NCBI GenBank assembly: GCA_944391225.1
Contig: CALXSS010000003.1
Location: 4,715-68,714 of the forward strand
Origin: an uncultured Clostridia bacterium
GTDB lineage: Bacteria; Bacillota; Clostridia; UBA1381
Reading direction: 5' to 3'
DNA length: 64,000 nt
Shown: positions 2,228 to 22,347 of the stretch, piece by piece
Layout: every line of letters starts with the position of its first letter
How positions within the stretch are numbered: the stretch's first letter is position 1
Notes under the pieces: generated by a model
Database searches by the model: none
Seen by the model: only the letters and a program-made list of their open reading frames with translations
What the model was told of the DNA's origin: nothing
Translations under genes and position numbers: made by a program

Positions 2228-4155
2228 ATGTCAAGATTTGAAACGTATTTCGCGTTTGCTTCTATAAAATCACGGCGCGGCTCGACCTTTTCGCCCATCA
2301 GTATTGTGAAGATCTGATCCGCTGCAATAGCGTCCTCCATATCCACTCTCAATATAGTCCTCTTTTCCGGATCCATTGTTGTTTCCTTAAGCTCAGGGGG
2401 ATCCATCTCGCCAAGACCTTTATATCTCTGGACCTTCGCGCCCTTGCCGAGCTCCTCGATCAGTCTGTCACGCTCATATTCGTCAAATGCAAATTTCTCA
2501 ACAAGGTCCTTGTTCTTGCCCTTGAACACTTTGAACAACGGCGGCTGCGCTATATATATATGTCCCTCCTCAATAAGCGGACGCATATATCTGAAGAAAA
2601 ACGTCAGCAGCAGCGTTCTTATATGAGATCCATCTACGTCGGCATCTGCCATTATAATGATCTTACCGTATTTCAGGTTATTTATATCGAAATCCTCGCC
2701 TATCCCGGCTCCGAGCGCCTGTATTATAGGAAGGAGCTTTTCATTTGAATATACCTTGTCTATACGCGACTTTTCAACGTTGAGCATCTTGCCCCAAAGA
2801 GGCAGAACTGCCTGATAACGCCTGTTTCTGCCCTGCTTAGCGCTGCCGCCAGCGCTGTCTCCCTCGACAATGAACAGCTCTGCGTAGTCAGCGCCCTCGT
2901 CAGTACATCTTGCAAGCTTGCCGAGCAATGATGAATTGTTCGCCGCAGAGCTTTTACGCGTTGCCTCTCTCGCTTTTCTCGCCGCCTCGCGTGCTCTTGA
3001 CGCATTTATCGTCTTTTCGATGATCGCCCTTGCTATGCGCGGGTTTTCCTCCAGGAATGCCGCGAGCTTATCAGACAGCGCGCCCTCTACAAGAGTTCTC
3101 GCTTCGCTGTTTCCAAGCTTTGTTTTCGTCTGACCCTCAAACTGCGCCTCAGCTACCTTTACACTGATCACCGCGGTCAATCCCTCTCGCGTATCCTCGC
3201 CCATGAGATTTGCGTCTTTTTCTTTCAGCAGCTTATATTTGCGCGCATAATCGTTGAGGACTCTTGTAAGTCCGGCCTTGAATCCTGTTTCATGCATTCC
3301 GCCGTCCACAGTGTGGATATTGTTCGCAAAGCTCAGTATCGTTTCAGAATAAGCGGTGGTATACTGCATTGCCACCTCTACCTCCATAGAGTCGCCGCGC
3401 TTTGCCTCAAAATATACTATATCGTCATGGATAGCATCCTTGTTCTTGTTGATATACTTTACAAATTCCTTGATTCCGCCCTCTGCATACAGCTCCACAG
3501 GCTTCGGCTCAGCCACACGCCTGTCGGTAAAAATTATACGAACTCCTTTATTCAGGAATGCTTGCTCCCTGAGACGCTTGAGCAATATATCATAATCATA
3601 GTCGAGAGTTTCAAATATCTCGGCATCAGGCAAAAATGTTGTCTTTGTTCCGGTCTTATCCGTGTCACCTATTATCTTTACCTGACAGGTCGGCTTGCCG
3701 CGCTCATAGCTCTGGTAATACACATGCTCGCCGTTTGAAACCTCTACCTCCAGCCTCTCGGAAAGCGCGTTAACGACCGATGAACCAACACCGTGCAGAC
3801 CGCCTGAAACCTTATATCCTCCGCCGCCGAATTTTCCGCCCGCATGAAGTATAGTAAGAACCACCTCTATAGTTGATATTCCGCGCTGTGGATGTATTCC
3901 AACAGGTATGCCTCTGCCGTTATCTTCTATAGTAACAGAATTATCAGCATTAATATCAACTGTTATACGGTCACAGTATCCGGCAAGAGCCTCGTCGATC
4001 GAGTTGTCCACTATCTCATAGATAAGATGATGCAGACCACTCAGCGATACCGAGCCTATATACATGCCCGGTCTTTTTCTTACCGCTTCAAGTCCCTCCA
4101 GCACCTGTATCTGGCTTTCATCATACGTTGTTTCTACAGCTTTGTTTTCGTTCAT
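2224..4155 (-). CDS. gyrB: DNA gyrase subunit B
   Basis: Motifs [52 protein letters not shown] and [11 protein letters not shown]. Start moved to MNENK (ATG 4155), or ATG 4167; AAAGGA lies upstream. The ORF-track extension to 4281 overlaps the remB-like gene. Confidence 0.95.
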
Positions 4156-4195
4156 TACCGTGATCATTCCTTTCTGTTCGCATAACGGCTGTTTA

Positions 4196-4459
4196 TCATG
4201 CCAGCAGCTCCGCTGACTTCGCCCTGCTTTGCAGCACCTTTGATGAGAGCGATGACAAATACACCCTGGTTTCTCCGTCATGCTCCGTTACCACATATGA
4301 TTTCGGCAGCTCGTCTGCCGTATATATCAATCCGCCGCCGCGCTCTGCACGCGGCAGAAAGTCGCGCCCCTGGCGCGACACGGTTGTATTATCCATATCA
4401 AAAATACCTATTATTTCCGATTTTAGCACAACACAATCATTACTTATCCTTAAATACAT
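4196..4459 (-). CDS. DUF370 / RemB (YaaB)-like protein
   Basis: 87 aa. It holds the conserved position between recF and gyrB, as in Bacillus (recF-remB-gyrB). The sequence [13 protein letters not shown]...R.FL is typical of DUF370. Confidence 0.8.
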
Positions 4460-5544
4460 TATTCCACCACCATTCCGTTTTCGATCCTGAAAAGCTTCGT
4501 TTCAGTAGCCTTATCTATCAGGTCGGTGTCTGTGGAGGTTATAAGCACCTGTTTGTCGCGTATGCGCTCTGCAAGATACATCCTGCGGTTTATATCCAGC
4601 TCGCTCATTATATCGTCAAGCAAAAGCACAGGATATTCACCCTTTACCTCCTTGATATAATCTGCCTGGGCTATTTTAAGACTCAACGCCGCTGTTCGCT
4701 GCTGACCCTGCGATCCAAAAAGCCGCGCCTCGCGCTCATTAACATATATCTCTATATCGTCACGCTGAATGCCGTGCAAAGATGATGCCGCGTCTATCTC
4801 GCGGCGCTCATACTCCTTTAGTTTTTCAAGCACTGCCTGAGCGGTCATTTCATCAGTCTTGATGCTGGGCACATATTTTATGCCAAGCTGCTCTCTCGAT
4901 ATTTCAGCCTGTATCTTTTTTGCTGCGGTTTCTATCAGCTCGGAAAACTCCAGACGGGCGCGCATTATCCTCGCCCCATGCTCCGCAAGCTGTTCGTTCC
5001 AAATGTCAAGAGTGGGGTCTGAGGCTGCACCCCGCGCGCGCAGCAGCTTTAATAGGCTGTTTTTCTGATTCAGCGCCTTATTATAGTCTATAAGAGACGA
5101 CAGATATGATGGGTACAGCTGGCTTATTGAGCTGTCTATGAATCTGCGCCTCACCCCCGGAGAACCCTTTACAAGATCAAGATCCTCGGGTGAAAACATC
5201 ACCACATTAAGATAATTCATGAGCGCGCTCAGCTTAACTATATGCACATGATTTACCGAAACGGCCTTTCGCCCGTTTTTCAGTATCTGCATTTGTCCGA
5301 AATGATCCCGCCGCTCATCGCTGAATTCAATATCCAGCTTTGCGAACCCCTCTCCAAACCGTATGAGTTCCCTGTCGCTGCGCGCCCTGTGACTGCGTCC
5401 CTGTGAAAACAGGTACACAGCCTCAAGTATATTGGTCTTACCCTGTGCATTGTTTCCGTATATCACATTTGTATACGGAGAAAACTCCAGTCGCGCTGAT
5501 TTGTAATTTCTGAAATTGCTTAGCTTTAACGTCTTTATATACAT
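4459..5544 (-). CDS. recF: DNA replication and repair protein RecF
   Basis: N-terminus [44 protein letters not shown] (Walker A) and the LLLDDIMSELD signature near the C-terminus. Confidence 0.95.
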   Translation of the reverse strand: MYIKTLKLSNFRNYKSARLEFSPYTNVIYGNNAQGKTNILEAVYLFSQGRSHRARSDRELIRFGEGFAKLDIEFSDERRDHFGQMQILKNGRKAVSVNHVHIVKLSALMNYLNVVMFSPEDLDLVKGSPGVRRRFIDSSISQLYPSYLSSLIDYNKALNQKNSLLKLLRARGAASDPTLDIWNEQLAEHGARIMRARLEFSELIETAAKKIQAEISREQLGIKYVPSIKTDEMTAQAVLEKLKEYERREIDAASSLHGIQRDDIEIYVNEREARLFGSQGQQRTAALSLKIAQADYIKEVKGEYPVLLLDDIMSELDINRRMYLAERIRDKQVLITSTDTDLIDKATETKLFRIENGMVVE

Positions 5545-5768
5545 TATACCACGCTTATTTCAAATGAATCATCCTCAAATTCGGCTTTTACCACATCGCC
5601 CGGTCTTATTTTTTTGCCGCGCATCGTGCATACCTCACCGTTGACCGATACGGCTCCATTTATCACCATATCCTTTGCCTCCGCTCCCGAATATGCTATC
5701 CCCGCATATTTTAACAGCTGATCGAGCTTTATAAACTCGGTAGTTATGGAGGTTTCTATCTTTTCCAT
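5544..5768 (-). CDS. S4-domain RNA-binding protein YaaA/RlbA-like
   Basis: 74 aa, [35 protein letters not shown]. Conserved position upstream of recF, with a TAATG overlap. Confidence 0.85.
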
Positions 5769-5783
5769 CTGTTATATCATCCT

Positions 5784-8042
5784 TTACTGAATTGTTCTTG
5801 TTACTGATATCACGCCCGGAAGCTGCTTGAACTTCTTTGTCAGCAGCGCAAGATCAGATGTGTTCTTGATCTCGACCCCTACCTGTATGACCGCTTCTTT
5901 ATCCTTTGTAACATAGGCGTTTGCAGATTTGAACGGTATCTTCAGGTTTATCAGCACATTGGTAACATCAAGCAGCATGCCGTCGCGATCTCTGCCTTCT
6001 ATACGCACATTCGCGATATATGAAGATGAACGCTCTGTATCCCATTGTACCTCTATTAGTCTCGCCCTGTCCTCCGGCTGAAGATTTACCGGCTTTATGT
6101 TAGTGCAGTCTGCTCTATGCACGCTTACGCCCCTGCCCTTTGTAATAAAGCCTATTATTTCATCACCTGCCACCGGATTGCAGCAGTGAGCCAGCCTTAC
6201 AAGACAGTTGTCTATTCCCTTTACTATTACTCCGTTTGTTGAATGGCGACGCTTCGTTTCCGTTTCAGGCTTAGCAGCCTTATCTATAACTGCTTGTATA
6301 TCCTCTGTTTTTTCTTTCTCGTGCAGCTCCTTGAGCCATTCCTCGCGCAGACGCATAACCACCTTTGTAGCCGTGATTCCGCCATAACCGACGCCGGCAT
6401 ACAGATCGTCAATCGAATTAAAGCCATATCTTTTCGTTATAAGACTTACCCATTCAGGTCTGAACAGCTGCGCGTGCGTGTTTCCAAGCCGCCTCAGCTC
6501 GCGCTCTATAAGCTCCTTGCCCTCCTCTATGTTCTCATCTCGTCTTTCACGCTTGAACCACTGATTTATCTTATTTCTTGCCCTTGATGTTCTGCATATC
6601 TTCAGCCAGTCACGGCTCGGTCCATGTGTGTTGGCTGTAAGTATCTCAACTATCTCGCCGTTTTCAAGCACATAGTTATTTGGCACTATCTTTCCGTTTA
6701 CCTTTGCGCCGCTCATCTTATAGCCCACCTCAGAGTGAATGGCGAACGCAAAATCTATTACCGTACTCTTTGCCGGCAAAGCGATAACTCTGCCCTGAGG
6801 CGTGAACACGAATACCTCGTCGGCAAAAAGATCAAATTTAAGAGTATTGAAGAATTCGTCTGTGTCTATTATATTCTGCTGAGTATCAAGCAGGGTTCGC
6901 ACCCACTCGAGCTTTGAATCCATCTCGGTCGCTCCGCTCACGCCCTCCTTATACTTCCAATGAGCTGCTATACCGTTTTCAGCTACTCTGTGCATTTCCC
7001 ATGTTCTTATCTGTATCTCGAACGGAGTGCCGTTTGGTCCTATGACCGTTGTGTGAAGCGACTGGTACATATTCGGCTTTGGCATAGCTATATAGTCCTT
7101 AAAACGCATAGGTACGGGTGTATACATCTCATGCACCATTCCCAATACCGCATAGCAGTCCTGTATAGTGTCAACTATCACTCTTACAGCAAAAAGATCA
7201 TACAGCTCATCTATAGTCTTACCCTGGGTATACATTTTCCTGAATATGCTGTAAAAATGCTTTGCCCGCCCCATTACGCTGCCCTTGATGTTCATTTCTT
7301 CCAGCTTTTTGCGGAATATCTCCATGATATCGGCTATATATTTATCCCTTGCGCTCTTTTTAAGATTGATGCTCTCGCGTATTTCCTCATATGCTACCGG
7401 ATCAAGATATTTCAAAGCCAGATCCTCAAGCTCTATCTTTATCTTTGACATACCCAGCCTGTGAGCGAGCGGCGCGTACACATCAAGCGTTTCCTTTGAT
7501 ATTCTGAGCTGCTTATGGCGCGGCATAAAATTCATCGTACGCATATTATGAAGCCTGTCTATAAGCTTTATCACAACCACGCGTATATCCTTAGCCATCG
7601 CCAAAAACATCTTGCGCAGATTCTCTACCTGCTGCTCCTCGCGTGATGAATATTTTATCTGTTTCAGCTTTGTTACACCGTCTACAAGCTCCGCCACAGG
7701 CGTGCCAAACATCATTGCAACATCATCAAAGGTACAGCCTGTATCCTCAACAACATCGTGGAGCAGACATGCGGTTATTGCTGTCGAATCAAGATTGAGC
7801 TGAGCCGCGATATATGCGACCTCTACCGGATGCACTATATACGGATCTCCGCTTTTGCGCTTCTGCCCCTCGTGCAGTGACTTTGCAAATCTGTACGCGA
7901 CATAAACCATATCAGTATTTGCCCCAGGGCTGTAGCCATGGAGCATCTCAATTATCTCCTCAACAAGCTTATCAGTATCCTTAATATCCCGCCGCGGTAT
8001 GACCTCCGGTTCCAGTATGGTATTTCTTTCACTATCAGTCAT
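5784..8042 (-). CDS. relA: Bifunctional (p)ppGpp synthetase/hydrolase (RelA/SpoT homolog)
   Basis: HD hydrolase motif (HDVVEDT), synthetase domain (YQSLHTTV), TGS and ACT regions. ATG at 8042 follows GAAAGG at good spacing and overlaps the recJ end by 8 nt. Confidence 0.95.
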   Translation of the reverse strand: MTDSERNTILEPEVIPRRDIKDTDKLVEEIIEMLHGYSPGANTDMVYVAYRFAKSLHEGQKRKSGDPYIVHPVEVAYIAAQLNLDSTAITACLLHDVVEDTGCTFDDVAMMFGTPVAELVDGVTKLKQIKYSSREEQQVENLRKMFLAMAKDIRVVVIKLIDRLHNMRTMNFMPRHKQLRISKETLDVYAPLAHRLGMSKIKIELEDLALKYLDPVAYEEIRESINLKKSARDKYIADIMEIFRKKLEEMNIKGSVMGRAKHFYSIFRKMYTQGKTIDELYDLFAVRVIVDTIQDCYAVLGMVHEMYTPVPMRFKDYIAMPKPNMYQSLHTTVIGPNGTPFEIQIRTWEMHRVAENGIAAHWKYKEGVSGATEMDSKLEWVRTLLDTQQNIIDTDEFFNTLKFDLFADEVFVFTPQGRVIALPAKSTVIDFAFAIHSEVGYKMSGAKVNGKIVPNNYVLENGEIVEILTANTHGPSRDWLKICRTSRARNKINQWFKRERRDENIEEGKELIERELRRLGNTHAQLFRPEWVSLITKRYGFNSIDDLYAGVGYGGITATKVVMRLREEWLKELHEKEKTEDIQAVIDKAAKPETETKRRHSTNGVIVKGIDNCLVRLAHCCNPVAGDEIIGFITKGRGVSVHRADCTNIKPVNLQPEDRARLIEVQWDTERSSSYIANVRIEGRDRDGMLLDVTNVLINLKIPFKSANAYVTKDKEAVIQVGVEIKNTSDLALLTKKFKQLPGVISVTRTIQ

Positions 8043-9771
8043 AATTACCAACCTTTCTCACATCATTTTTTATGTCGATTATCTGCAGCTGCAGTGATTC
8101 GTTACCCTGATACACATTGATGTCAAATTTGAACGCAAGATGCACCATATCTCCCGGATAAACATACTGAGCAAATTCTCCCAATCCAAAACCTATACAG
8201 CCTACCTCTGTCCCGTCTTTTTCTATCCTCAGCCTTAAATGCTTGTTATCGGCTCCAACTGTCGTTATCGACTGCACTGCCGCATTCTTTATCACAAACA
8301 CAGGCCGCTCATTACCCATACCGTACGGCTCCAGCGTCGAAACTGCCTTTGCCGTTGCCAGGCTCAAGCTCTGCCCGCCCAGAATGCTGTCGATCTTGAC
8401 TGATGGTATCATATCGTCATCGCTCAGCACCTGGTCGGCGTATTTATTTATATTTACTGTAAAATCCTTGATATTATTCTCTGTTATGCCCAATCCTGCG
8501 GCAACGGCGTGTCCGCCGAAATTGGTAAGATATTTTTCACTGTCGGAAAGAGCCTCAAAAAGATTGAAGCCAGCTATGCTCCTGCCGCTGCCCTTGCCAA
8601 CTCCGTTATTAAGCGAGATCAGTATGCACGGCTTATAAAACATTTCCGTTATTCGCGAAGCTACTATTCCTATAACGCCGTTGTGCCAGCCCTCACGCGC
8701 AAGAACTATCACCTTTTTCTTACCGGCATTGGGATCTGACGCTATCATTTCCAGCGCCTCACGATTTATGTTCATTTCCGTTGCCTGACGTTCTTTGTTC
8801 TCAGCGTCAAGATCCTCCGCTATCTGCTTCGCCTTTTCGGGATCCTTAGTGAGCAGCAGCTCCACAGAGGTCTCTGCAGTTCCCAGTCTTCCCGCAGCGT
8901 TCATGCGCGGCGCCGCGGCGAATGCTATAGTTGACGACGTTATTTTTTTATCCGCTACGCCCGCGACCTCGAAAAGCGCCCTAAGACCGGGACGCTGCAC
9001 AGCTGAGAGCTTTTTCAGACCTTTATCCACTATCACCCTATTTTCATCAACGAGCGGCACAACATCTGCTATTGTTCCTATAGCCGCTATATCCACAAAC
9101 CTATCAAAGCATTCGCCTGTGTTCATTCCGTATGCCATAGCCAGAGCCAGCACCAGCTTGAATGCCACTCCTACTCCCGCAAGCCCGTCAAACCCGTACT
9201 CATCCTCCTCGCGCTTTGGATTGACCACAGCCACAGCCGCCTCCGGAATGCGTTCCTTGCAGGTATGATGATCTGTTATGATAACATCCATCTTCTGCAG
9301 CCTCGCAAACTCCACCTCGCCTATCGCCGTTATTCCGCAGTCTACCGTTATAAGCAGGTTCATGCCCTTTTTTATAAGCTTGTTTACTGCCATTATATTT
9401 ATTCCGTAGCCCTCGTCCTTGCGGTCAGGTATATAATATATAACATCAGCCCCAAGCGCTGACAGAAACTCATATACAAGGGCTGTAGATGTTATACCGT
9501 CCACATCGTAATCGCCGTATATTACTATCTTTTCCTTATTATCTACAGCCTCTTTGATCCTCTTAACCGCTTTATCCATGTCAAGCATACTCATGGGATT
9601 GCGCACTCCGCGCTTAGACTTTGTTATGAACGACTCGAAATCTGATTCTTCTATCCCTCTGTTCAACAACACATTTGCAATTATATACGGGATCTTATGC
9701 TGTCGTGCGGCACTGCTTACCGCCTCAGGCTTAACTCCCTTATTTCTGAATTTCCATACCTTCCGAACCAT
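8035..9771 (-). CDS. recJ: Single-stranded-DNA-specific exonuclease RecJ
   Basis: DHH motifs (IYGDYDVDGITS, ITVDCG, VIITDHH) and a DHHA1 region (GGHAVAAG). Start moved to MVRKVWKF (ATG 9771), preceded by GGAGG. The track extension lies upstream of the predicted promoter. Confidence 0.9.
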   Translation of the reverse strand: MVRKVWKFRNKGVKPEAVSSAARQHKIPYIIANVLLNRGIEESDFESFITKSKRGVRNPMSMLDMDKAVKRIKEAVDNKEKIVIYGDYDVDGITSTALVYEFLSALGADVIYYIPDRKDEGYGINIMAVNKLIKKGMNLLITVDCGITAIGEVEFARLQKMDVIITDHHTCKERIPEAAVAVVNPKREEDEYGFDGLAGVGVAFKLVLALAMAYGMNTGECFDRFVDIAAIGTIADVVPLVDENRVIVDKGLKKLSAVQRPGLRALFEVAGVADKKITSSTIAFAAAPRMNAAGRLGTAETSVELLLTKDPEKAKQIAEDLDAENKERQATEMNINREALEMIASDPNAGKKKVIVLAREGWHNGVIGIVASRITEMFYKPCILISLNNGVGKGSGRSIAGFNLFEALSDSEKYLTNFGGHAVAAGLGITENNIKDFTVNINKYADQVLSDDDMIPSVKIDSILGGQSLSLATAKAVSTLEPYGMGNERPVFVIKNAAVQSITTVGADNKHLRLRIEKDGTEVGCIGFGLGEFAQYVYPGDMVHLAFKFDINVYQGNESLQLQIIDIKNDVRKVGNYD

Positions 9772-10871: not shown

Positions 10872-10948
10872 TGGTCGGGATGACTGGATTTGAACCAGCG
10901 GCCCCTACGTCCCGAACGTAGTGCTCTACCAAACTGAGCCACATCCCG
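10872..10948 (-). tRNA. tRNA-Pro (anticodon CGG), encoded CCA
   Basis: Minus strand: CGGGATGTGGCTCAGTTTGGTAGAGCACTACGTTCGGGACGTAGGGGCCGCTGGTTCAAATCCAGTCATCCCGACCA. Folded by hand into a cloverleaf with anticodon loop TTCGGGA. Confidence 0.9.
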
Positions 10949-10953
10949 TAATA

Positions 10954-11042
10954 TGGCGGAGGAGGTGGGATTCGAACCCACGAGCCCTTTCGGACTACCG
11001 CATTTCGAGTGCGGCCCGTTATGACCACTTCGATACTCCTCC
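10954..11042 (-). tRNA. tRNA-Ser (anticodon CGA), class II long variable arm, encoded CCA
   Basis: Minus strand: GGAGGAGTATCGAAGTGGTCATAACGGGCCGCACTCGAAATGCGGTAGTCCGAAAGGGCTCGTGGGTTCGAATCCCACCTCCTCCGCCA. Anticodon loop CTCGAAA, T-loop GTTCGAATC. Confidence 0.9.
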
Positions 11043-11086: not shown

Positions 11087-11115
11087 ATACTACCATAAAA
11101 TTATTCATTTGTCAA
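11087..11115 (-). promoter_or_regulatory. Candidate promoter for the tRNA-Ser/tRNA-Pro pair (TTGACA-17-TAGTAT)
   Basis: Minus strand reads acTTGACAaatgaataattttatggTAGTATatat, about 40 nt upstream of tRNA-Ser. Confidence 0.45.
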
Positions 11116-11181
11116 GTATTTTTTTTATTTTTTTCAAAAAAATATGAGGCGAAAAAATATTTTGCTGAGTCAGAAAAACAG

Positions 11182-11410
11182 GAGGCTGTTGCAAAACTCA
11201 ACGAGTTTGCAACAGCCTTGGGGGCTTTAGAAAAATAGTGCAGAACGGACGAAACGAAGGGGCGCAGCCCCCTTGCCCGAAGGCGTACGGGGGTACGTCG
11301 AGCGGTGAGTTTCGTTCGTAACATAAAGCGATTTTAATGCTGAATTTTTCATTTATGAAAATTTCCACCTTGAACTTGATAGCAGTGATCCTTAAAAATG
11401 GCTTATCTGC
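11182..11410 (-). repeat. Modular structured repeat, long copy A (terminator hairpin plus ~190-nt structured body)
   Basis: About 95 percent identical by eye to 51721-51951. Read on the minus strand it ends in a 16-bp hairpin plus T-run. It has an internal 11-bp long-range stem (ACGAACGAAAC/GTTTCGTCCGT), a cUUCGg tetraloop hairpin and competing G5/C5 runs. Confidence 0.8.
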
Positions 11411-14400
11411 TCGCAGTTTGCATCGCCCTCTGTGTTTACAAAGTGCGCGAACAGATAGGCTGTAGTTTCTATAGCGTCCTTAACCTTTATGGTCTTTGTG
11501 ACTGATCTTACAGTTTCGCTGTTGTTTTTCATAGAGCAGGTCACTTTGTAGGTGCCGTTGTCAGTAACGGCAAAGCTTCCGGCAGGATCGACTGAGGTGT
11601 TTCCGCCAAAGCCCGGCACGCTGTCAGAGCTTATTGATACAGAGAGTGTATACGGTGTATCAGCGCTGTTGTAATCTGTTGTGTAATATATCGTTTTGTT
11701 CTCGCTGTACGCTGTGAAGGTGTCAAGCGCCGCAGTGTATCCTACAACCGTTATCTTGAAATCCTTTGTAAATTCTATACCATTATCAGTTGTTTTAGCT
11801 GTCAGTATAGCTGTTTTAGTGTCGTCAGCTCTTGTCACTGATCCGTCTGTTGAAACTACAGACGGATCAGAGCTTTCCCAGGTCACGTTTTCTATCTGAG
11901 GGATAGTAATGTTGCTCTTTACTGCAGAGGTATCGCCAAGGCTTATGCTTCCGAGTGGATTTTCAAGCGGTTTATTGTATATTACAAAATCGTCAAGATA
12001 TCCGGTTGCAAACTCGCCGCTGCCCCAGTTGGCAAGACCGATATATGCGACAGACGCAGAACCGAGCATCTGTGAAATGTCGACTGTTGAAGCGATAGTG
12101 TCTGTCTCATTGCCGTTGATATATACGGTCGAGAAACCGTCTTCAATGGAGATCATGACGTCGTTCCATTCGTTTGTGTTATACGCGCCTGTTGCCGACT
12201 CGCTTCTTGAGCCGTTATTATCATAGCGTTCATGTGTAAGAGTGCCACCTGAGGTCATAATACCAAGGTATTTTTCCTTCTGGTAGGTCTGTGTTGAGGC
12301 GTTTGGCGCCGCAAAGAACCACCATGATGTGCCTGTAGTTGTCGGCTTTACCTTGAATGATATAGTAAGATTCTTCTGACCTGTAAGCAGGCTGTTGCCG
12401 TTGGCATCTGTAAGAGTTACAGCGGATCCTCTTGTTCCGTCAAAATATACGCACTGCTTTCCGTCCTCTGTTACAAAGCTCGGAGTTCCGGAAGCCTTGC
12501 CATATGTAGATGAGCTCGTAAGATCTCCGTTATCAAAGCTGAGGTTTATAAGCTCGCCGCTTTCCGGAATAACAGGAGCGTCTGTAGGATCAGGAGCCGC
12601 TGTAGGATCAGGCAGTGAGCCGCCTGCGTATGTTATAACGTCTGTATCAAGATTATCATAGGATACTACTCTTTCTCTTGAGGAATTGTAATTTCCGCTG
12701 AGCTCTATGGATCCTATTGATACAGGTGTGGTAAGAGTTCCGCTTACTATAGTATCTTCCATGCCGCCTGTAGCTGAAATTGATACTATTCCTGTGCCGC
12801 TTATTGTTATTTCAACTGTCTTGTTGTATCCAACAGCATTGACATAAGGCTGACCGCTTGCATTCCAGCCGTTGGCTCCGGCTTTACTGTTTGTGCCCGG
12901 GTTGCTGCGGCTCTGGGCAATAGTGGCGCCGCTGAGCACATTTGTTCCGCCTATTCTTATTTCGTTGAAATTATAGCCGCCGCCTGTCATATAGAGCGCC
13001 GCTATCTCATTGCCATTCTTATCCTTTATTGCAAAGGTATTGTCTCTGCCGTTGTTTTCCCAGCCGGCAAACATATCAAATGTCATTCTGAAGAGCTGGT
13101 CGCCTGTAAGCTCTATAGGCTTTGACAGTGATGCGGTGGCAGTTGATTTTACAGGTACAAATACATTCCCGAACCTTTCAAGACCGCAGGAATATATAGT
13201 ATTGCCGTCCTCTGAAAGTGTGTCGACATAAGAAGCAGCTCCGAATATGTTTGTGCTGCCCTCAAAGCTGTCTGTAAGCTCCTCTATATCTGTAACTGTC
13301 GGCGAATTTTCAGGTGTGTCGTTCAAGAACTCACCATTCAGAAGAAATTCAGCGATATTAGCCATGTCATTATTGTTCGTATATCTGTAATATCTGTAAG
13401 CATGGTTATCAGAAAGCTGAGATGCAGATATTGTTGTATACGAATCCGACGGTATTGCAGAGGTTATAGTATAGAGATCTGTCCATGAAATGCCATCGTT
13501 TGAAGCCTGTATTGTTCCGCCTATGGTTCTTTCGGGGAATCCTTTGCCGCTTCTCGCTGCAAGCTTGACCTCGCTGAGCTTATACGGCGCGCCGTAATCA
13601 TACTGTACCCATCCGCCCTGAGTACCGTCGAAATATGTGGTGAGATCGCCGTCAACAGCCTTGCGATAGTCTGCATTGTCATCCGGACGGGTCGAATCAT
13701 TGCTCCACGAAGCAGTTCCGCTTACAGAGTAAAGCTGAACGGTGATGTTTTTTTCTATTCTGTGCTCACCGATCGCAGCATAAATAGTTACCTCGCCGGG
13801 AACAAGACCGGTTATAATGCCGTCAGCTGTGATCGAAGCTATGCTGTCATCTGAAACAGACCATGTTACTGTTCCCGTGATATTTGCAGTGAGTGAAAGC
13901 TGGGCTGTTTCGCCGCATTTAAGCGTTGCACCTATGCCGTTTATTGTTCCGCTCATAGGAACGCTGAACGTTCTTTCAAAGGTATATCCTGCTATCTTTG
14001 CATATACAGTAACTGTTCCGAGCGCCTTTGCAGTGAGCTTTCCGTCAGCTGTGATCGAAGCTACAGTATCATCTGAAACGCTCCAGGTCACGTCGCCTTC
14101 AAGATCGGTATTGAGTGTAAGCTGGCTGTCTGAATTGAGCTCCAGCTCGTCATCTGCACCGGTGATCACGCCGTAATAGGTGATGTTATCTGGACCGCTC
14201 ACCGTAGTTACCGGAGCGATAAGAGCGTTCTGATCATCATCCCATACCATCAGCTTAACTGTGCAGCCTGAGAAATCGCCTGATACACTGTCATCTGATT
14301 TATTGCATGAAACATACTTGAGCGCTCCATCGCTGCTGTAAACAGCCAAATACGCGTTGTTACCCTTCAGGCTGTCAGGGAGCGTATAGCTGTAGCTCAT

Positions 14401-15975
14401 TCCGCTTTCATCTGCTGAAAATGATGTGAGTGAAACGGTGCTGCTACCATCAACTATATATGTTGTGATCGTATTAGCCTTTGCGGTAGTTGAGAGAGTT
14501 TTGCCGTTTATGGAAGCCTCTCCTGTTATCTCTGCCCAGTGCTCCGCAGCTGATCCGGTAGCATTATTGGATCTTATTTCCCTTACCGTGGATCCTACTC
14601 TTGAGAAAGACGAAAGATCAAATTCATATGGAATATCCTGCGAGGAGGAGTTTGATACTACTATCTTTATATCTCCGCTTTCCTTATTGTATGCTGCAAG
14701 TGTGCGGTCTGAGGATGCGATTATGGTATCGCCCGGGTTTATGTATTTTGTAAACTGACCGAACGCGTAGTATTTGTTGGTAAGCACAAATTCTTCCTTG
14801 TCATGATCTGCCATACCAACACCCCAGAGCGATGAGGTTTCTGAAACGCTGTTTCCTGATTCTGTATGGTTTCCGCTTGGATCGGTGAAATCCGAATCCT
14901 TATGAACATCGATAATATCCCACATTATCCATGCAGCCGGCATCATGCCGTTCATATCCAAGATGATCCTGTCAGCAAGACCAAAGCCGTTCCAACCGCC
15001 GTCGACCTCGCTCATCCAGAGCGTTTTGTTCATGGAAACCGCTTTATCCTTGAGCTGGCTGCGTTTTGAACCGCCGTAGGTATGGGTATCGATCCTGCCA
15101 AGCGCCTCTTTAGCCTCGTCAGTGAGCTTATCGAGGTTGGTTACTGATGAATCTATGCTCGTTTCGTCCATACCGGCAACGAGCACATCCGTAAGACCGG
15201 CATTGTCAAGTGCTTTTCTTGTTTCGATTATCATATTTGACTGACTGGTGCCGGGTGTATAGTGACAGCCTTCCTGTTTTGGACTGTTTGCTCCCCAGTA
15301 GTTGGTATCAGGCTCGTTCATTGGAGAGTAACTTTCAAAAACAATGCCCTCGTTCTTGAGCAGCTTTGTTGACTCTGCTATGTATTCAGCAAAGTCGTCA
15401 TACATATTTGTTTTCAGATTGTCATCTGAAGCATTCTCTGCTCCGCTTGAACAGCCGCTGTTAGTCATAAAATACGGGGGTGAATTTGAAAAGCCCTCGA
15501 AATAAATGTCGCTGTTGGCTTTTAGAGCAGCTTTAGCATCATTGAGCTGGTTGCTGTCTTTAGTGACATCGTAAGTGATTGATACGTCGTCGCCATCGTT
15601 TATATATTCAAAGCTGTCCCAAACTCCCGGTACCTTTGAATCCGAACGCGTTACATGATCGTGAGCGGGATCGTCGCCACCGCCTATATTATAGCGCGCA
15701 ATATCAAGTCCTAATCCGTCTTCGGAAAAGAACAGCTCTCCTGCCTGCTCAGTAAGTTTTTCGCTGTAGCCTATCCTGTTTGCCCACCAGCAAAGCGATG
15801 TACCCCAGCCTTCAAATCTGCCGTTGTTGAACGGAGACGCGTTTGAAGGATCCAGCTTTACTGTTGTGACATCAGTATCAGCCGCAGCGGCGCCGGAAGG
15901 AAACAGCGCTATACCTGAAGCCGGCAGAAGCGTGAGTGCCGTGATAAATGAAATTATTTTTTTCGTATTCATCAT
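11392..15975 (-). CDS. Secreted multidomain glycoside hydrolase (GH30/COG5520-like catalytic region, Big_2 Ig-like repeats, F5/8-type-C/CBM32-like and LamG-like domains)
   Basis: Signal peptide MMNTKKIISFITALTLLPASG. RFEGWGTSLCWWANRIGYS matches GH30-type enzymes from memory. VTWSVSDD.IASITADG occurs twice (Big_2). DGDLTTYFDG..GGWVQYDYG is discoidin-like. The last codons and the stop lie inside repeat copy A. Confidence 0.75.
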   Translation of the reverse strand: MMNTKKIISFITALTLLPASGIALFPSGAAAADTDVTTVKLDPSNASPFNNGRFEGWGTSLCWWANRIGYSEKLTEQAGELFFSEDGLGLDIARYNIGGGDDPAHDHVTRSDSKVPGVWDSFEYINDGDDVSITYDVTKDSNQLNDAKAALKANSDIYFEGFSNSPPYFMTNSGCSSGAENASDDNLKTNMYDDFAEYIAESTKLLKNEGIVFESYSPMNEPDTNYWGANSPKQEGCHYTPGTSQSNMIIETRKALDNAGLTDVLVAGMDETSIDSSVTNLDKLTDEAKEALGRIDTHTYGGSKRSQLKDKAVSMNKTLWMSEVDGGWNGFGLADRIILDMNGMMPAAWIMWDIIDVHKDSDFTDPSGNHTESGNSVSETSSLWGVGMADHDKEEFVLTNKYYAFGQFTKYINPGDTIIASSDRTLAAYNKESGDIKIVVSNSSSQDIPYEFDLSSFSRVGSTVREIRSNNATGSAAEHWAEITGEASINGKTLSTTAKANTITTYIVDGSSTVSLTSFSADESGMSYSYTLPDSLKGNNAYLAVYSSDGALKYVSCNKSDDSVSGDFSGCTVKLMVWDDDQNALIAPVTTVSGPDNITYYGVITGADDELELNSDSQLTLNTDLEGDVTWSVSDDTVASITADGKLTAKALGTVTVYAKIAGYTFERTFSVPMSGTINGIGATLKCGETAQLSLTANITGTVTWSVSDDSIASITADGIITGLVPGEVTIYAAIGEHRIEKNITVQLYSVSGTASWSNDSTRPDDNADYRKAVDGDLTTYFDGTQGGWVQYDYGAPYKLSEVKLAARSGKGFPERTIGGTIQASNDGISWTDLYTITSAIPSDSYTTISASQLSDNHAYRYYRYTNNNDMANIAEFLLNGEFLNDTPENSPTVTDIEELTDSFEGSTNIFGAASYVDTLSEDGNTIYSCGLERFGNVFVPVKSTATASLSKPIELTGDQLFRMTFDMFAGWENNGRDNTFAIKDKNGNEIAALYMTGGGYNFNEIRIGGTNVLSGATIAQSRSNPGTNSKAGANGWNASGQPYVNAVGYNKTVEITISGTGIVSISATGGMEDTIVSGTLTTPVSIGSIELSGNYNSSRERVVSYDNLDTDVITYAGGSLPDPTAAPDPTDAPVIPESGELINLSFDNGDLTSSSTYGKASGTPSFVTEDGKQCVYFDGTRGSAVTLTDANGNSLLTGQKNLTISFKVKPTTTGTSWWFFAAPNASTQTYQKEKYLGIMTSGGTLTHERYDNNGSRSESATGAYNTNEWNDVMISIEDGFSTVYINGNETDTIASTVDISQMLGSASVAYIGLANWGSGEFATGYLDDFVIYNKPLENPLGSISLGDTSAVKSNITIPQIENVTWESSDPSVVSTDGSVTRADDTKTAILTAKTTDNGIEFTKDFKITVVGYTAALDTFTAYSENKTIYYTTDYNSADTPYTLSVSISSDSVPGFGGNTSVDPAGSFAVTDNGTYKVTCSMKNNSETVRSVTKTIKVKDAIETTAYLFAHFVNTEGDANCEQISHF

Positions 15976-16030
15976 TTTACCTCCTTGTATTCTCTCTCTT
16001 TGTTAGTCTCATTCTCTGCTTATATTGTAA

Positions 16031-16070
16031 TATAAAAAGTGTCAAGATGTTACCATAAATCTTGACACTT
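16031..16070 (-). terminator. Intrinsic terminator after the AraC-family gene
   Basis: Minus strand: AGTGTCAAGAT-(10 nt)-ATCTTGACACT followed by TTTTTATATT. The right arm also carries a TTGACA that could serve the glycosidase gene. Confidence 0.55.
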
Positions 16071-16081
16071 TATCATAATTC

Positions 16082-16825
16082 TTATGTTAATTTTTGAAAA
16101 TTTGATGATCCGTAATATTTTCTGTATTGCCCAGGGGTAAGCCCCATAACCGATTTGAACTTGTCGGTAAAATGGCTCTGTGAGCTGAAACCAAAGTATG
16201 CGCTTATTCTCTGAATGCTGTAATTTGAGAATTTCAGCATGTTGCAGCAGCGTGAGATCTTTTCTTCAAGTATATACTCGGTCAGTGTTTTGTTTTCCGA
16301 TCTGCTGAATAATGATGATAGATAATCGGCATTGACGTTTAGCCAGGCTGCAATATCTTTTACAGATATCTTATTGTTTATGTTTCTGAATATATAGTCC
16401 TTAGCTCGTGCGATTATAGGGTTAAAGATCTTGTTGTTTTTTGTTTCACACACCATCTCAGCAAAGGTCATCTGGGTGTTATGCAGCAGCTCTATGACCT
16501 GCTCAGGCTTTTTGATATCCTGCTCAAGCTTCATGATAACAGCGTCAACTATTGAAAATGCCGTTTCAGGGTTTAGCCCGCCGGATATAGCGCTGCGTGA
16601 GGAAAGCGTAATAACACCTATAGCTATGTTTTTTAAGCTGCGCAGCGGGTCGGGAGCGAGAATCCCTATAGAGCCCTCGTATTTTTCAGCCCAACACAGC
16701 TTCAATGATTCCGTATCGCCACGACGTATGCTCTCCTGCTCGCGCATTTCCTGATCATACGGGTTATGCCACGTCTGCTCATCTGTATCGTTGAGCAAGC
16801 CGAGGATCTGATTGTTGTCTGCCAT
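16082..16825 (-). CDS. AraC-family transcriptional regulator
   Basis: C-terminal double HTH: ISVKDIAAWLNVNADYLSSLFSR...ISRCCNMLKFSNYSIQRISAYFGFSSQSHFTDKFKSVMGLTPGQYRK. Confidence 0.85.
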   Translation of the reverse strand: MADNNQILGLLNDTDEQTWHNPYDQEMREQESIRRGDTESLKLCWAEKYEGSIGILAPDPLRSLKNIAIGVITLSSRSAISGGLNPETAFSIVDAVIMKLEQDIKKPEQVIELLHNTQMTFAEMVCETKNNKIFNPIIARAKDYIFRNINNKISVKDIAAWLNVNADYLSSLFSRSENKTLTEYILEEKISRCCNMLKFSNYSIQRISAYFGFSSQSHFTDKFKSVMGLTPGQYRKYYGSSNFQKLT

Positions 16826-16913
16826 GTGTGATACCTCCTTTGCCGTTTAGGCGTTTCGTGACTGGTCATCTGATAATAATTATATATTAACACATTATAG
16901 TCGTTTTGTCTAC

Positions 16914-16950
16914 TAAAAAAACAGGAAACGCCGGGCGTTTCCTGTTTTTT
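16914..16950. terminator. Bidirectional-looking intrinsic terminator after the SLH-protein gene
   Basis: AAAAAAACAGGAAACGCC-g-GGCGTTTCCTGTTTTTT, a perfect 12-bp stem flanked by A- and T-runs. Confidence 0.75.
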
Positions 16951-16955
16951 AGTTA

Positions 16956-19900
16956 TCAATCATATATAACAACAAGTCTTGCTGTCGGTGTCACTGATGA
17001 TGAGCTGCTGGTGCTTGAGGTATATGTTATAAGAACCTTTGAGCAGTCTGAACCGAAGTTCTTAGCCTCCTTAAGGTCTGTCAGTGTGATGTTTGTACTG
17101 TCAGTACCTTCAGCGTAAGGAGTAAATTCATCTTTTGCAGAATCATATCTGATGTACTTGGTTGAGGAGGAGACTTTTATTTCCTCGTACTCTGATTCGT
17201 CAAGAACACCTGATTCATCGAAGCCGTTCTTAGTAACATAGATCTTGTTGTCATCGGAAAGGACCTGGATCACATTGAACATAGCTGCTCTTGAGAAGAT
17301 GTTTGTAACATTGCCGCCTGTCTCGAAATAGCTGTCTGTCGGCTCTGAAACAGAGGCTTTAGGATATCTCCAGTCAAACTTGTAGAGCTGCCAGTTGTTA
17401 TCCTCTGTCTGCTCCTGGGTTTCATTCCAGTAATATGTTGCTGTCTTTGTTTCGCCGTCAGCGCTTTCATATGTAACGGTCTCTCCGTTCAATATTCTCT
17501 TAATCTCGTCATAATCCTGAACCTTGATATAGGTATCTGCATAATTATCTGAATCAAGTCCCATGAGGATTATATCACCCATGCCTACATCACTGAAGTT
17601 AGCTGAAGGTGAGATATTTGTGTTTGAAAGCGAGGTGCTTGAGAAGTATGTCGGTATATTTTTGAATACATCATCTTCATCCGCATCATAAACCTCTTCA
17701 ATATCGTCAGCCACAAGTCTGTATAATGTAGATTTTGTTATTGTTGTACCGCTCTTGAAGTTTGTGTTGTATACGAGAACACAGGACGGATATTTTGAAT
17801 CGTTCAGATCGAATGCCTCAACATAGTATGAGCTTCCTGATACCATTGAGTTTGAGGTAACTGCTGATTTGAGCGAGTAGCTATCCGTATCGGTTCTGTC
17901 CTTAGGGATAACAAACAGCGGTGTCGAGCTTCTTATTGAATAGAAGGTCGAGCCTGTGCTTGATTCCTTTACTGCTGTTGAAGAAACATAATATTTCTTT
18001 TCAGGATCAATTGCCTTATATCTTACAAGATTTCCGTTATCGGTGTTGACCGTGCCGTCTGTTGAGTTAATAGTAACAACATTAGTTATTTCCGAAGCGT
18101 CGTTGAATCCGACCTTGATAAGCTGATTGTAGCCTGTAAGCTTAACGTCTAAGTTTGCGATCTCTGTATCGGGGTTAGCTGTTTCGGCTGATTCAGCCAG
18201 AGCGTCAAGAATGCTTTCCGCATTTGAGCTTGAACCGTTGAGCTTTGGCTTTGCAGCCAGCTTATATGTCTTCACCTTATATGATGTTGATGATGAGAAT
18301 GAGGTTATGGAGGTGTTTGAAGGAGCAAACAGTCTGAGATAATAATCCTCGCCCTCCGTTACCGCATCTATTACATAAGCGTAAGGATAGAATGAGGTAG
18401 AGGAGGATACTGTTCCCCACTCAAGGCTTCCAAGAATATCAAGATAAGCTGTTATCGACATACCGGTCTTGATCTCTTTCTGCTCTTTATCCTGCATATA
18501 CTTCAGAAATCTTTCGGTAACTCTATATTGAGTACCGTCTATTGAGATGGTCTTTTCTCCGGAGCCCTCAATGCTTGTAGCAGTAATTGTTCCGGTAACG
18601 CTTTTAGCTGTATCGTAAACAGTATAAAGCTCACCGTCAAGGCTTACGGCATAATTGAGAACATCGTTTGCAGCGATATTTGTTGTTTTGATCTCGCTGT
18701 CATTTTTTGTGATCGTAAACTTATAATCCACGTCGTCAGGATCAAGGATTATGTAGTTACCGGTAACTGTTTTATCAGTTATTTTGTAATCTGATGAAGA
18801 TGGCGTCTTATAAGCGACAATTGTATCATAGTCATATATATCAACAATATTGTAGCTTCCCTTTGATCCGCTGTCTATGAGCTTTACAGTACCATAGATA
18901 AAGTTATCCGAATCAGGGTTGAGCCATTCGTTCAGAGCGTCAAGCGGCGCATATGCTGTGTCGCCAAGATATACATTTCCTGTAACGGCTCTGCCGTTGT
19001 AGCGTACAGTAAGGTCGGCGCTGTTGAGCTTAGCTGTCTGAGAACGTGATGAATCGTCCAAATAGTATTTAAACGATGTACCTGAATATGAGTCTATATT
19101 GTATGAGTAGACTGTCACTTCAGTATTTGAGTATGTCTCATTGTCTATCTCCACGAGCCATCTGTCGTCTGAGTTCTTGTCCTGGCGGTAATATACCTTA
19201 ACGGTATTTCCAAGGAATGCGCTCATTGTAGCGTATGAGTCGGTATATTCGGTGTAGTCTATAACGTATTCCTCGTCATACATATCCTTTACAGCCATCT
19301 GACCGGTATAGAGCTTTGCGTTGCAGTCGGCTGTGGTTGAATCCTCAACGCCAACAACTGTTCCCTTGAGTACGTATACGCCAAGGTAATCGTTAAGAAG
19401 AGTCTTGTCAGAAGCCTGCCAGCCTGTAGCTGTCTGCTCGTACATAGCTACTTCAAGAGCGTTGTACATTATCTGTGTTACAACTCCTCTTGAGGCGTTG
19501 TCTGTGAATGCTGTGTCCGCAACTCCGTCAGTAAGGCTGAGAGCTGCTGCCTGTGAAATGTATCCCTGCGGATAGCCGCCGCTCTGTTCTGCCAGCGACT
19601 GGTATCCAAGAGTACAAACAAGCATCTTGAGCGCCTGCTCGTATGTAACGGGCTCGTCCGGTTTGAATGTTACTTCATCAAAACCGTTGATGATACCAAG
19701 ATCATATGCGACCTTGATATTGGAATTTGCCCAGTGGTCGGCGCTTACGTCGTTGAACTGGGTAATTGGTTCTGTGAGATCACCATAGCCGAGCATGTAA
19801 ACAATAATTTTTGTGAATTCAGCACGTGTAATATCCTTTTCAGGTTCAAACGTGCCGTTCTCATAACCGTTGATCACATTCAGCTTGCTAAGAGTGGTGA

Positions 19901-20021
19901 TAGCGTCCTTGTAGCGGTAATCAGCAGCAACGTCGCTGAAATCAGCTTTAACGCTTACGGCTGAGAACAGTGTCGTCATGAGCATGACAACTGCTACAAA
20001 CAATGAAAATTGTTTTTTCAT
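16956..20021 (-). CDS. Large cell-wall-anchored protein with three N-terminal SLH domains
   Basis: Start moved to MKKQFSLFVAVVMLMTTLFSAVSVKA (ATG 20021, RBS AAAGGAA). SLH repeats FSDVAADYRYKDAITTL...NGTFEPEKDITRAEF and FNDVSADHWANSNIKVAY...FKPDEPVTYEQAL. The remaining ~850 aa carry no domain I recognise. Confidence 0.8.
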   Translation of the reverse strand: MKKQFSLFVAVVMLMTTLFSAVSVKADFSDVAADYRYKDAITTLSKLNVINGYENGTFEPEKDITRAEFTKIIVYMLGYGDLTEPITQFNDVSADHWANSNIKVAYDLGIINGFDEVTFKPDEPVTYEQALKMLVCTLGYQSLAEQSGGYPQGYISQAAALSLTDGVADTAFTDNASRGVVTQIMYNALEVAMYEQTATGWQASDKTLLNDYLGVYVLKGTVVGVEDSTTADCNAKLYTGQMAVKDMYDEEYVIDYTEYTDSYATMSAFLGNTVKVYYRQDKNSDDRWLVEIDNETYSNTEVTVYSYNIDSYSGTSFKYYLDDSSRSQTAKLNSADLTVRYNGRAVTGNVYLGDTAYAPLDALNEWLNPDSDNFIYGTVKLIDSGSKGSYNIVDIYDYDTIVAYKTPSSSDYKITDKTVTGNYIILDPDDVDYKFTITKNDSEIKTTNIAANDVLNYAVSLDGELYTVYDTAKSVTGTITATSIEGSGEKTISIDGTQYRVTERFLKYMQDKEQKEIKTGMSITAYLDILGSLEWGTVSSSTSFYPYAYVIDAVTEGEDYYLRLFAPSNTSITSFSSSTSYKVKTYKLAAKPKLNGSSSNAESILDALAESAETANPDTEIANLDVKLTGYNQLIKVGFNDASEITNVVTINSTDGTVNTDNGNLVRYKAIDPEKKYYVSSTAVKESSTGSTFYSIRSSTPLFVIPKDRTDTDSYSLKSAVTSNSMVSGSSYYVEAFDLNDSKYPSCVLVYNTNFKSGTTITKSTLYRLVADDIEEVYDADEDDVFKNIPTYFSSTSLSNTNISPSANFSDVGMGDIILMGLDSDNYADTYIKVQDYDEIKRILNGETVTYESADGETKTATYYWNETQEQTEDNNWQLYKFDWRYPKASVSEPTDSYFETGGNVTNIFSRAAMFNVIQVLSDDNKIYVTKNGFDESGVLDESEYEEIKVSSSTKYIRYDSAKDEFTPYAEGTDSTNITLTDLKEAKNFGSDCSKVLITYTSSTSSSSSVTPTARLVVIYD

Positions 20022-20129
20022 TAAATCATTCCTTTCTTTTGAGGTATGAGGAATATGCGTTTGGTAAATATTCCACATAGATCCCCTAAAATATACAGCA
20101 ATATCCACACATTGCTGTGACTATTTACT

Positions 20130-20158
20130 ATTATATCATTCTTTTGCCTGCAAGTCAA
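20130..20158 (-). promoter_or_regulatory. Sigma-A-type promoter for the SLH-protein gene (TTGACT-17-TATAAT)
   Basis: Minus strand reads aTTGACTtgcaggcaaaagaatgaTATAATag, about 100 nt upstream of ATG 20021. Confidence 0.55.
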
Positions 20159-20184
20159 TCATAATTTGAGATAAGATACAAGTA

Positions 20185-20228
20185 AAAATTTGTCGAGTTA
20201 TTAATAAAAATTTGTCCTGTTATTAATA
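20185..20228. repeat. Tandem 22-bp direct repeat (2 copies) in the divergent SLH-gene/ftsH control region
   Basis: aaaatttgtcGAgttattaata / aaaatttgtcCTgttattaata. Each unit contains the palindrome TTATTAATAA. Confidence 0.6.
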
Positions 20229-20343
20229 ATCTATTAAAAAGCAGCTAATATAACAAATTTGTGTTGAAATTTTAATTGAAATGTGATACACTTATTAAAT
20301 ATGAAAGCATTTATAATTATTTGCGGCGGAAAGGAATATTGAC

Positions 20344-22341: not shown

Positions 22342-22347
22342 CGAATG

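Follow-up and report, generated by a model that had tools for sequence, protein, structure and literature searches.

Copy A (11177-11412, minus strand) of the 64-kb window, by which we mean the whole 64,000-nucleotide stretch of uncultured Clostridia DNA that was analyzed, is best explained as a damaged member of a nonautonomous family of small interspersed repeats of the MITE/REP-like and SPRITE-like kind that end in a palindrome, with this terminal palindrome presumably serving as a transcription terminator. We put the probability of this reading at roughly 0.7. The family is new and its kind, the selfish interspersed repeat, is familiar; a small-RNA gene is not demonstrated. The original prediction had described a modular, multicopy, noncoding element ending in a terminator-type hairpin, a description that holds, and had labeled it either a small RNA or MITE-like, the second of which proves the better label.

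Members and distribution of the repeat family

Using sequence comparison, a profile search, and motif searches, we counted eight family members in 64 kb: two long copies, two short copies, one inverted fragment, two hairpin-only copies, and one 165-nt relative. Three of the eight are additions to those listed in the original prediction. The proposed pair of long copies is real, with the block at 11151-11420 matching 51714-51951 at 95.4% identity over 238 columns. Copy A (nhmmer profile positions 48 to 284) is a long form that is truncated at its 5' end and fused to a truncated GH30 gene, and copy B (51716-52000, minus strand; profile positions 2 to 284) is a full-length unit lying between a PHP gene and mnmE.

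The same query block recovered the shorter versions that had been claimed, at 56867-56966 (95% identity), at 35361-35460 (90%), and, on the opposite strand, at 54372-54419 (92%). The first of these is copy D (56874-56965, minus strand), a short form consisting of core and palindrome. The second is copy C (35367-35472, minus strand), a short form in which the 5' end, GGGGCTGTAGCAAA, is joined straight to the core and palindrome by an internal deletion at a GCAA microhomology. The third is copy E (54364-54421, plus strand), an inverted fragment made up of the tail of the core and a decayed palindrome, identified by similarity and by the hairpin pattern.

Similarity and the profile search also identified copy F (44805-44842, matched at 44807-44842 and listed without a strand), a hairpin-only member that had been overlooked. 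Flanked by the OTCase and GNAT genes lies copy H (28403-28436, minus strand), a hairpin-only member in a decayed state, which has an ortholog in the related locus L022. Copy G (30664-30828, plus strand) is the 165-nt relative; its 23-nt terminal inverted repeats (GGGGCTGCGGAGAAATGTACAGA / GGGGCTGTGGAAAATATACAGA) show homology to the 5' end of copy B. Motif counts in the window exceed expectation: a 34-nt hairpin pattern matched five times at three or fewer mismatches versus 0.00 expected (100 shuffles), and the heptamer GGGGCTG occurs 16 times versus 2.8 expected.

In a scan of one genome per species, the hairpin was found in only three metagenome-assembled genomes (MAGs) of uncultured Clostridia/Firmicutes, at eight loci, four of which carry long copies; the carriers known in all number only five or six genomes, from thin sampling. 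A scan of JGI metagenomes with a permissive hairpin pattern returned eight matches, all of them attributable to chance and all within genes. The hairpin had no matches in viral contigs, blastn with the element found none among plasmids and phages, and a literature search for the hairpin sequence returned none. The Logan contig of L023 starts inside the family palindrome (positions 1 to 30), as expected of a short-read assembly broken at a repeat, and MAG-based copy numbers are therefore probably underestimates.

Organization of the full-length unit

The full unit is about 285 nt long, so that the block of about 230 nt originally delimited was too short. Copy B extends to about position 52000, and the extra 50 nt at its 5' end are common to the aligned copies from related MAGs; copy A is therefore truncated. 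The unit starts with AGGGGCTGTAGCAAAATGCACAGACCACATAAAGCG, which is present in copy B and missing from copy A. In the sense of the upstream gene, it runs from a 5' end (GGGGCTGTAGCAAAATGCACAGACC, where a small hairpin is possible) through a poorly conserved middle to a well-conserved 3' domain and core of high self-complementarity and, finally, a 17-bp palindrome.

All three of the 3'-most modules lie on the minus strand in copy A. The terminal palindrome, which is the hallmark of the family and its presumed terminator stem, occupies 11182-11219 and has 17 pairs, a 3-nt loop, and one bulged T. The core, CTTCGTTTCGTCCGTTCTGCACTATTTTTCTAAAGCCCC, occupies 11220-11262 and is common to long and short forms, being present in copies C and D as well. 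The 3' domain (11263-11335, delimited by alignment and RNAalifold) is confined to long forms and contains a long-range stem, a CGTAC/GTACG hairpin with a variable loop, a GCC-UUCG-GGC hairpin, and a small hairpin of variable sequence.

Identity between genomes is 94% in the 5' end, 68 to 79% in the middle, 88 to 100% in the 3' domain, and 95 to 100% in both the core and the terminal palindrome. Between copy B and L008, for example, the 3' domain is 100% identical (73/73) and the middle only 79%. Well-conserved ends around a poorly conserved middle make this a transposon-like pattern. The outer half of the terminal palindrome is an imperfect inverted copy of the unit's 5' end, giving the long form terminal inverted repeats that match at 13 of the first 15 nt and at about 17 of 25 nt. 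As the alignment reads, the terminal "terminator" hairpin is thus the 3' inverted repeat together with an adjacent inverted copy of that same repeat.

The shorter forms are deletion derivatives, in a series from long to short to bare palindrome. L006 keeps only a GGGGGC..GCCCCC stem and the palindrome, and the palindrome alone is left in copies F and H and in L001, L004, L005, L017, and L022. Hairpin-only members are, like REP/BIME elements, extragenic imperfect palindromes of 20 to 40 nt present in many copies. The family also has the characters of a MITE, being small, noncoding, and multicopy, with terminal inverted repeats and presence/absence polymorphism at orthologous sites.

A different arrangement is seen in L007, where a divergent, inverted partial copy (276-412, minus strand) directly adjoins a full copy. 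In this partial copy the long-range stem is longer (ACGAAACGCACA / TGTGCGTTTCGT) and encloses a different interior.

Terminator substitution at orthologous sites

Orthologous loci in relatives were retrieved through homologs of MnmE and GH30, and four sites, designated B, C, S, and H, were informative. At site B, the PHP gene and mnmE are separated in L017 (MnmE identity, 86%) and L021 (81%) by a spacer of 57 nt that contains an ordinary terminator of the form AGCGG(C/T)ATC-loop-GATGCCGCT and then TATTTTACA. In the window, CAATGA and TATTTTA flank the 285-nt unit just as they flank the terminator in these two relatives. At site C, where the SSF gene ends, an ordinary hairpin (ATATGCGGCGGAG-CACT-CTCCGCTGCATAT, then TTTTTTGTTG) is present in L022; the window carries the short form and then ATTTTTGTTA, with the tract TTTTTGTT common to both. 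Site S, between the SLH and AraC genes, runs in the reverse direction: the window and L022 keep the ordinary CAGGAAACGC..GCGTTTCCTG, and in L023, the closest relative, it is the family palindrome that precedes TTTTTTTAGT, a sequence common to all three. At site H, between the OTCase and GNAT genes, a decayed family hairpin is present in the window and in L022, with an ordinary terminator in L024.

At all four sites the host stem-loop is gone, the T tract is retained, and the family hairpin is unrelated to the ordinary one; at sites B, C, and S, the retained tract aligns collinearly with the T tract of the ancestral terminator. None of the copies is bordered by direct repeats, and the empty sites show loss of the host hairpin instead of a target-site duplication. 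Different forms of the family occupy the shared sites D, E, and G in the two species; L017 has a hairpin-only variant at the position orthologous to copy D, and L022 has only a hairpin-only member at the copy G junction. The more distant relatives L018, L020, and L024 have no copies in 68 kb.

Comparison of these sites shows that the family moves: new copies arise at gene ends, in the sense of the upstream gene and precisely in place of an ordinary terminator stem-loop, and there they abut the host's own T tract. Decay proceeds by internal deletion, from the long form through the short form to the bare palindrome, and copies engage in illegitimate recombination, as at the junction of copy A with the GH30 gene. 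Hairpin-for-hairpin substitution is the sole feature of the family that may point to a new mechanism, and we know of no bacterial repeat family described as inserting in place of a terminator without target duplication. We tentatively suggest, with the odds against it, that the element recognizes intrinsic terminators by their structure, swaps the stem-loop for its own, and keeps the T tract, thereby preserving termination, with the 3' domain as the working part, either a protein-binding site or an element RNA.

The terminal palindrome as a putative terminator

The original prediction read the end of copy A as a hairpin followed by a T run. The hairpin is present, but the T run (CTGTTTTTCTGA, 11170-11181, minus strand) lies outside the repeat, in host-derived flank that varies from copy to copy. 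Copies A to D of the window each have the layout of an intrinsic terminator, a G+C-rich stem-loop and then a T tract at a gene end. In copy A the palindrome has a predicted ΔG of -23.2 kcal/mol and is followed by 7 T in the next 10 nt; copies A to D as a group range from -21 to -25 kcal/mol with 6 to 8 T. Family stems overall range from -17 to -28 kcal/mol and have T-rich or A-rich flanks, the exception being the decayed copy E (-12.5 kcal/mol). The bulge in the palindrome causes a simple terminator scan to miss it.

Of the long and short copies, seven have a known upstream gene, and each of the seven is co-oriented with that gene. Together with the host T tract, the terminal palindrome would terminate transcription of the upstream gene, and long copies would be expected to lengthen the mRNA at its 3' end by about 250 nt of folded sequence. 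When the palindrome was aligned in 15 copies from five genomes, 8 of its 17 pairs were invariant. Such conservation as sequence suggests recent spread or protein recognition rather than selection for pairing alone.

Copy A and the truncated GH30 gene

The GH30/Big_2/Laminin_G gene fused to copy A (11392-15975, minus strand) encodes 1,526 amino acids, compared with 1,798 and 1,802 in its nearest homologs, and its product is without the C-terminal PF22847 (GH43-related) domain that those homologs carry. DNA homology to the L023 GH30 ortholog ends at about position 11405, at a junction between GAGCAGAT and AAGCC, and GCAGAT, a 6-nt microhomology, is common to the GH30 gene and to the element at about its position 55. 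Judged by this end of homology and the shared GCAGAT, copy A is the product of a microhomology-mediated deletion or rearrangement. In this event the GH30 gene lost about 838 nt (about 279 codons) and the element lost its first 50 nt or so, and the repeat now supplies the last five codons and the stop codon of the truncated gene (junction at about 11405-11412).

In relatives, the GH30 gene is followed by an ordinary terminator and then by mntP. The SLH-AraC-GH30 block of the window (about 11400-27250) is flipped with respect to mntP when set against L022 (1000-11400).

About 7 kb of additional genes (20344-27011) lies between the inverted block and mntP. Farther along, about 7.4 kb (34.8 to 42.1 kb), in which the SSF transporter and a DUF815 ATPase are encoded, separates secG from an aldolase gene in the window; the two genes are adjacent in L018 and L020. 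L018 (77% MnmE identity) carries a Gp49/HTH pair, ToxN, AbiEi, and AbiEii between a gltD-like gene and nrdR (2397-8286), and these toxin and abortive-infection genes are absent from the window. On the other side of copy A, a strong promoter-like site, TTGACA-17-TAGTAT with a TG extension (11087-11115, minus strand), lies between the repeat and the genes for tRNA-Ser(CGA) and tRNA-Pro(CGG) (10872-11042), so that the tRNA pair is apparently served by a promoter of its own, located downstream of the putative terminator of the repeat.

Coding potential and the search for a mobilizing enzyme

No reading frame is open in all copies. A 41-codon open reading frame (ORF) with a good Shine-Dalgarno site was considered and rejected: it is broken in L008, L002, and L003 (three of the six long copies), and all three differences between copies A and B that fall inside it alter the amino acid. 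The frame that runs open through copy B was ruled out as genuine coding sequence along with it. That frame, an ORF at 50334-51983 (minus strand) open across all of copy B, led the gene caller to extend mnmE to 549 amino acids (P0001), a public call with a spurious N terminus of 97 residues; the real start is the ATG at 51692. The window's MnmE, looked up with three different starts, had no record, and a search of 5.8 billion proteins with the concatenated six-frame translation of the element returned only the window's own protein. A template/variable repeat pair of a diversity-generating retroelement was also rejected, as the differences between copies A and B are not adenine specific and no reverse transcriptase lies nearby.

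The genes next to the copies are ordinary chromosomal ones, among them those for the GH30 enzyme, tRNA-Ser, tRNA-Pro, PHP, MnmE, the SSF transporter, V-ATPase, and RecF. No transposase abuts any copy in the window or the related loci, the original prediction having proposed such neighbors as a check. Judged by gene context, tnpA, tnpB, and RAYT genes are absent from the roughly 230 kb covered (the window plus about 170 kb of related loci), as is any autonomous partner with matching ends. Six-frame translations match no Pfam family and contain no transposase remnant in any frame. For its mobility the family would need either an enzyme provided in trans that recognizes its conserved ends or a hairpin-directed process, whether template switching or recombination.

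One candidate for such an enzyme is a hairpin-recognizing HUH/Y1 protein (IS200/IS605-type TnpA, in a PATE-like manner, or RAYT) that mobilizes the element as single-stranded DNA, in which case the 3' domain could be the relic of a transposon-end RNA. Much of the anatomy would suit it: the lack of target-site duplication, hairpins at both ends whose 5' halves have the same sequence in direct orientation (GGCTGTAGCAAA, GGCTGTTGCAAA), a palindrome conserved in sequence and not merely in pairing, a GTAG within the 5' end, and insertion at structured DNA, namely, terminators. We nonetheless consider it unlikely, given that the left flanks (TGA, AAA, TGT, and ATA) contain no conserved target tetranucleotide, that the enzyme genes and remnants named above were absent, that neither long copy matched Rfam at an E value of ≤10, and that the classical 23-nt terminal inverted repeats of copy G point to a DDE-type enzyme.

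RNA folding and promoter-like sequences

The original prediction recognized no known RNA family in copy A, and an Rfam 15 search agrees: only two tRNAs in the window reached the gathering score, and for the two long copies, at an E value of ≤10, nothing credible was returned (the best scores, 27 and 24 bits, fell short of cutoffs of 44 and 59 bits, respectively). Among the structures predicted from the minus strand, GCC-TTCG-GGC is present at 11275-11284. The 11-bp long-range stem also exists (11245-11255 with 11309-11319), but its imperfect pair, described as G-U, is A.C on the minus strand and G.U only on the plus strand. The proposed pseudoknot, or alternative pairing of a C5 run with either of two G runs, is unsupported, because the C5 run is the loop of the conserved CGTAC/GTACG hairpin; the stem is constant, and the loop varies (CCCC, CCAT, CAAC) without compensation in the G runs.

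The minus strand folds at -75.8 kcal/mol (z = -4.3 versus shuffles) and the plus strand at -81.3 kcal/mol (z = -3.6). Both strands thus fold better than shuffles, as is expected for any set of inverted repeats, so fold energy does not choose between them. RNAalifold gave a consensus of 61 pairs; compensatory changes affect 4 of these, and every one comes from L003, the one divergent copy. For this structure, which was derived from the same alignment, four pairs changed on both sides compare with 1.0 in shuffles; 3 of 500 shuffles reached four, and controls in which the structure was slid along the alignment gave zero to two compensatory pairs. Three copies at about 88% identity have 1 compensatory change versus 30 that are single sided or pair breaking, and their G.U-type changes (10 on the minus strand versus 11 on the plus strand) show no strand preference. 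In L003, 19% of paired columns and 43% of unpaired columns are changed. The small hairpin keeps its stem as its sequence changes (GGGGC-TGC-GCCCC, GGAGGC-TTCG-GCCTCT, and GGG..AGGC-TTCG-GCCT..CCC).

Support for a selected or conserved RNA fold is weak overall; the paired columns of L003, the small hairpin, and the constant CGTAC/GTACG stem with its varying loop point toward such a fold. The complete identity of the 3' domain between copy B and L008 and the fewer changes in paired columns of L003 hint at constraint beyond neutral decay, possibly reflecting a function at the RNA level. A strand-specific case for an RNA of minus sense, built on the 10 G.U-type changes that L003 has on the minus strand versus 2 on the plus strand, was discarded when unpaired columns proved to have the same C-to-T excess (9 versus 3).

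An RNA-level function could be exerted in cis. Stabilization or regulation of mRNA by repeats in 3' untranslated regions has been proposed for REP/BIME and BOX elements, and the present family might be a once-mobile module, since domesticated, whose folded 3' domain stabilizes or regulates the upstream mRNA. The strict co-orientation with the upstream gene (7/7), the high degree to which different genomes preserve the 3' domain and core (the window and L008 agree at 100% over 73 nt), the strong predicted folding (z = -4.3), and the persistence of the small hairpin's stem all fit such a role. However, the upstream genes (GH30, PHP, SSF transporter, and GltD-like) are functionally unrelated, the 3' domain has been lost from most copies, covariation is weak, and recent spread or gene conversion among copies would explain the conservation equally well; we regard domestication as quite unlikely.

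Alternatively, the long form might encode, in multiple copies, a small RNA of about 150 to 170 nt that acts in trans, starts from an internal promoter-like sequence, and ends at the palindrome. The promoter-like pair TTCATA-17-TAAAAT (11331-11359, minus strand; 9/12 matches), reported as conserved in both long copies, is indeed present in A and B, but it is absent or weak in L002 and L007, and its conservation extends only to L008 (with spacing of 16 or 17 nt among the three). L003 has TGTACA-16-TATAAT (10/12 matches), with a different -35 element, at the corresponding position immediately before the 3' domain. Such pairs are expected by chance about once per 700 to 800 nt.

In favor, Coxiella is known to have small RNAs derived from MITEs (PMC10969869), internal conservation of the unit is highest in the 3' domain and core, and the consensus fold has four compensatory pairs versus 1.0 in shuffles. 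Against this, all of the compensatory changes come from one sequence, scored on a structure that this alignment itself yielded; among the copies at about 88% identity the balance is the opposite, with no strand preference; and the G.U excess of L003 is matched in its unpaired columns. Short and hairpin-only derivatives, empty sites, and terminator substitution are moreover unexpected for a family of small-RNA genes, which we judge distinctly unlikely.

A last and very improbable reading takes the palindrome for a nonmobile DNA-uptake or protein-operator sequence that accumulates in terminators, as do the DUS/USS pairs of Neisseria and Haemophilus; we know of no uptake-sequence systems in Clostridia. 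The stem sequence is conserved across genomes of 33 to 48% G+C, and the palindrome lies in terminators, where uptake sequences are also known to occur (PMC1852404), but the change at the present sites is wholesale replacement (a 285-nt insertion, with unrelated stems) rather than point mutation, and long, short, and inverted-repeat-bearing relatives exist.

Discussion

Read as mobile, palindrome-ended repeats, these elements enlarge the small set of terminator-like bacterial repeats with a family from uncultured gut Clostridia. If the precision of insertion reflects mechanism rather than selection, it would represent a new route to harmless insertion for a selfish element. The family also has practical consequences: it breaks MAG assemblies (as in L023), misleads gene callers (as with the 97-codon false N terminus of mnmE), and marks rearrangement junctions (as at the truncated GH30 gene).

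Several known systems share part of this behavior. Class C (IIC) group II introns choose their target by structure and home beside the stem-loops of intrinsic terminators, much as the present family is found at terminator sites. However, they are ribozymes of more than 600 nt that usually carry a reverse transcriptase ORF, they insert after the hairpin and leave it in place, and the present family has no group II signature in Rfam. Like PATEs derived from IS200/IS605, the present unit has hairpins at both ends, but it has neither a conserved left target nor a transposase remnant.

The likeness to the REP/BIME elements of enterobacteria and pseudomonads is greater. Both are extragenic palindromes at gene ends with a mosaic or modular build, conserved in sequence as well as in pairing, and both vary in their occupancy of orthologous intergenic sites. 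REPs, however, are 20 to 40 nt long, tied to a RAYT gene, and marked by a conserved GTAG, whereas the present unit is far longer, its palindrome abuts a T tract like a true terminator, and no RAYT gene was found in the approximately 230 kb examined. With Correia/NEMIS, RUP, ERIC, and BOX elements the family shares a size below 300 nt, a noncoding nature, many copies, imperfect terminal inverted repeats (15 to 23 nt), internal-deletion variants, strong predicted RNA folding, and, presumably here too, effects on neighboring transcription units. Classical MITEs differ in generating target-site duplications (TA in Correia and RUP) and, for several, in having an identified insertion sequence (IS) partner; the present family has no such duplication and no partner in the window or related loci, and its insertion replaces a host hairpin instead of being a plain addition.

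The functionally closest counterpart is SPRITE of Streptococcus pneumoniae, which has an 18-bp duplex and a U-rich tract and is enriched at the 3' ends of coding sequences (PMC3049150). SPRITE has been suggested to be a co-opted terminator and has neither a target-site duplication nor a matching IS (PMC3049150; reviewed in PMC10969869). Both are small, noncoding, interspersed repeats of Firmicutes with a long duplex (18 bp in SPRITE and 17 bp here), and both lie near the 3' ends of coding sequences, beside a T-rich tract, with no recognizable target-site duplication or matching IS. The two have no sequence relation, and the U-rich tract lies inside the SPRITE repeat, whereas the T tract belongs to the host in the present family, which in addition reaches 285 nt in its long form, contains a complex 3' domain, and includes nested deletion derivatives. 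Finally, whereas no empty sites were available for SPRITE, four sites record hairpin-for-hairpin substitution in the present family, and they place the repeat exactly at the position of the former terminator hairpin, with the host T tract reused.
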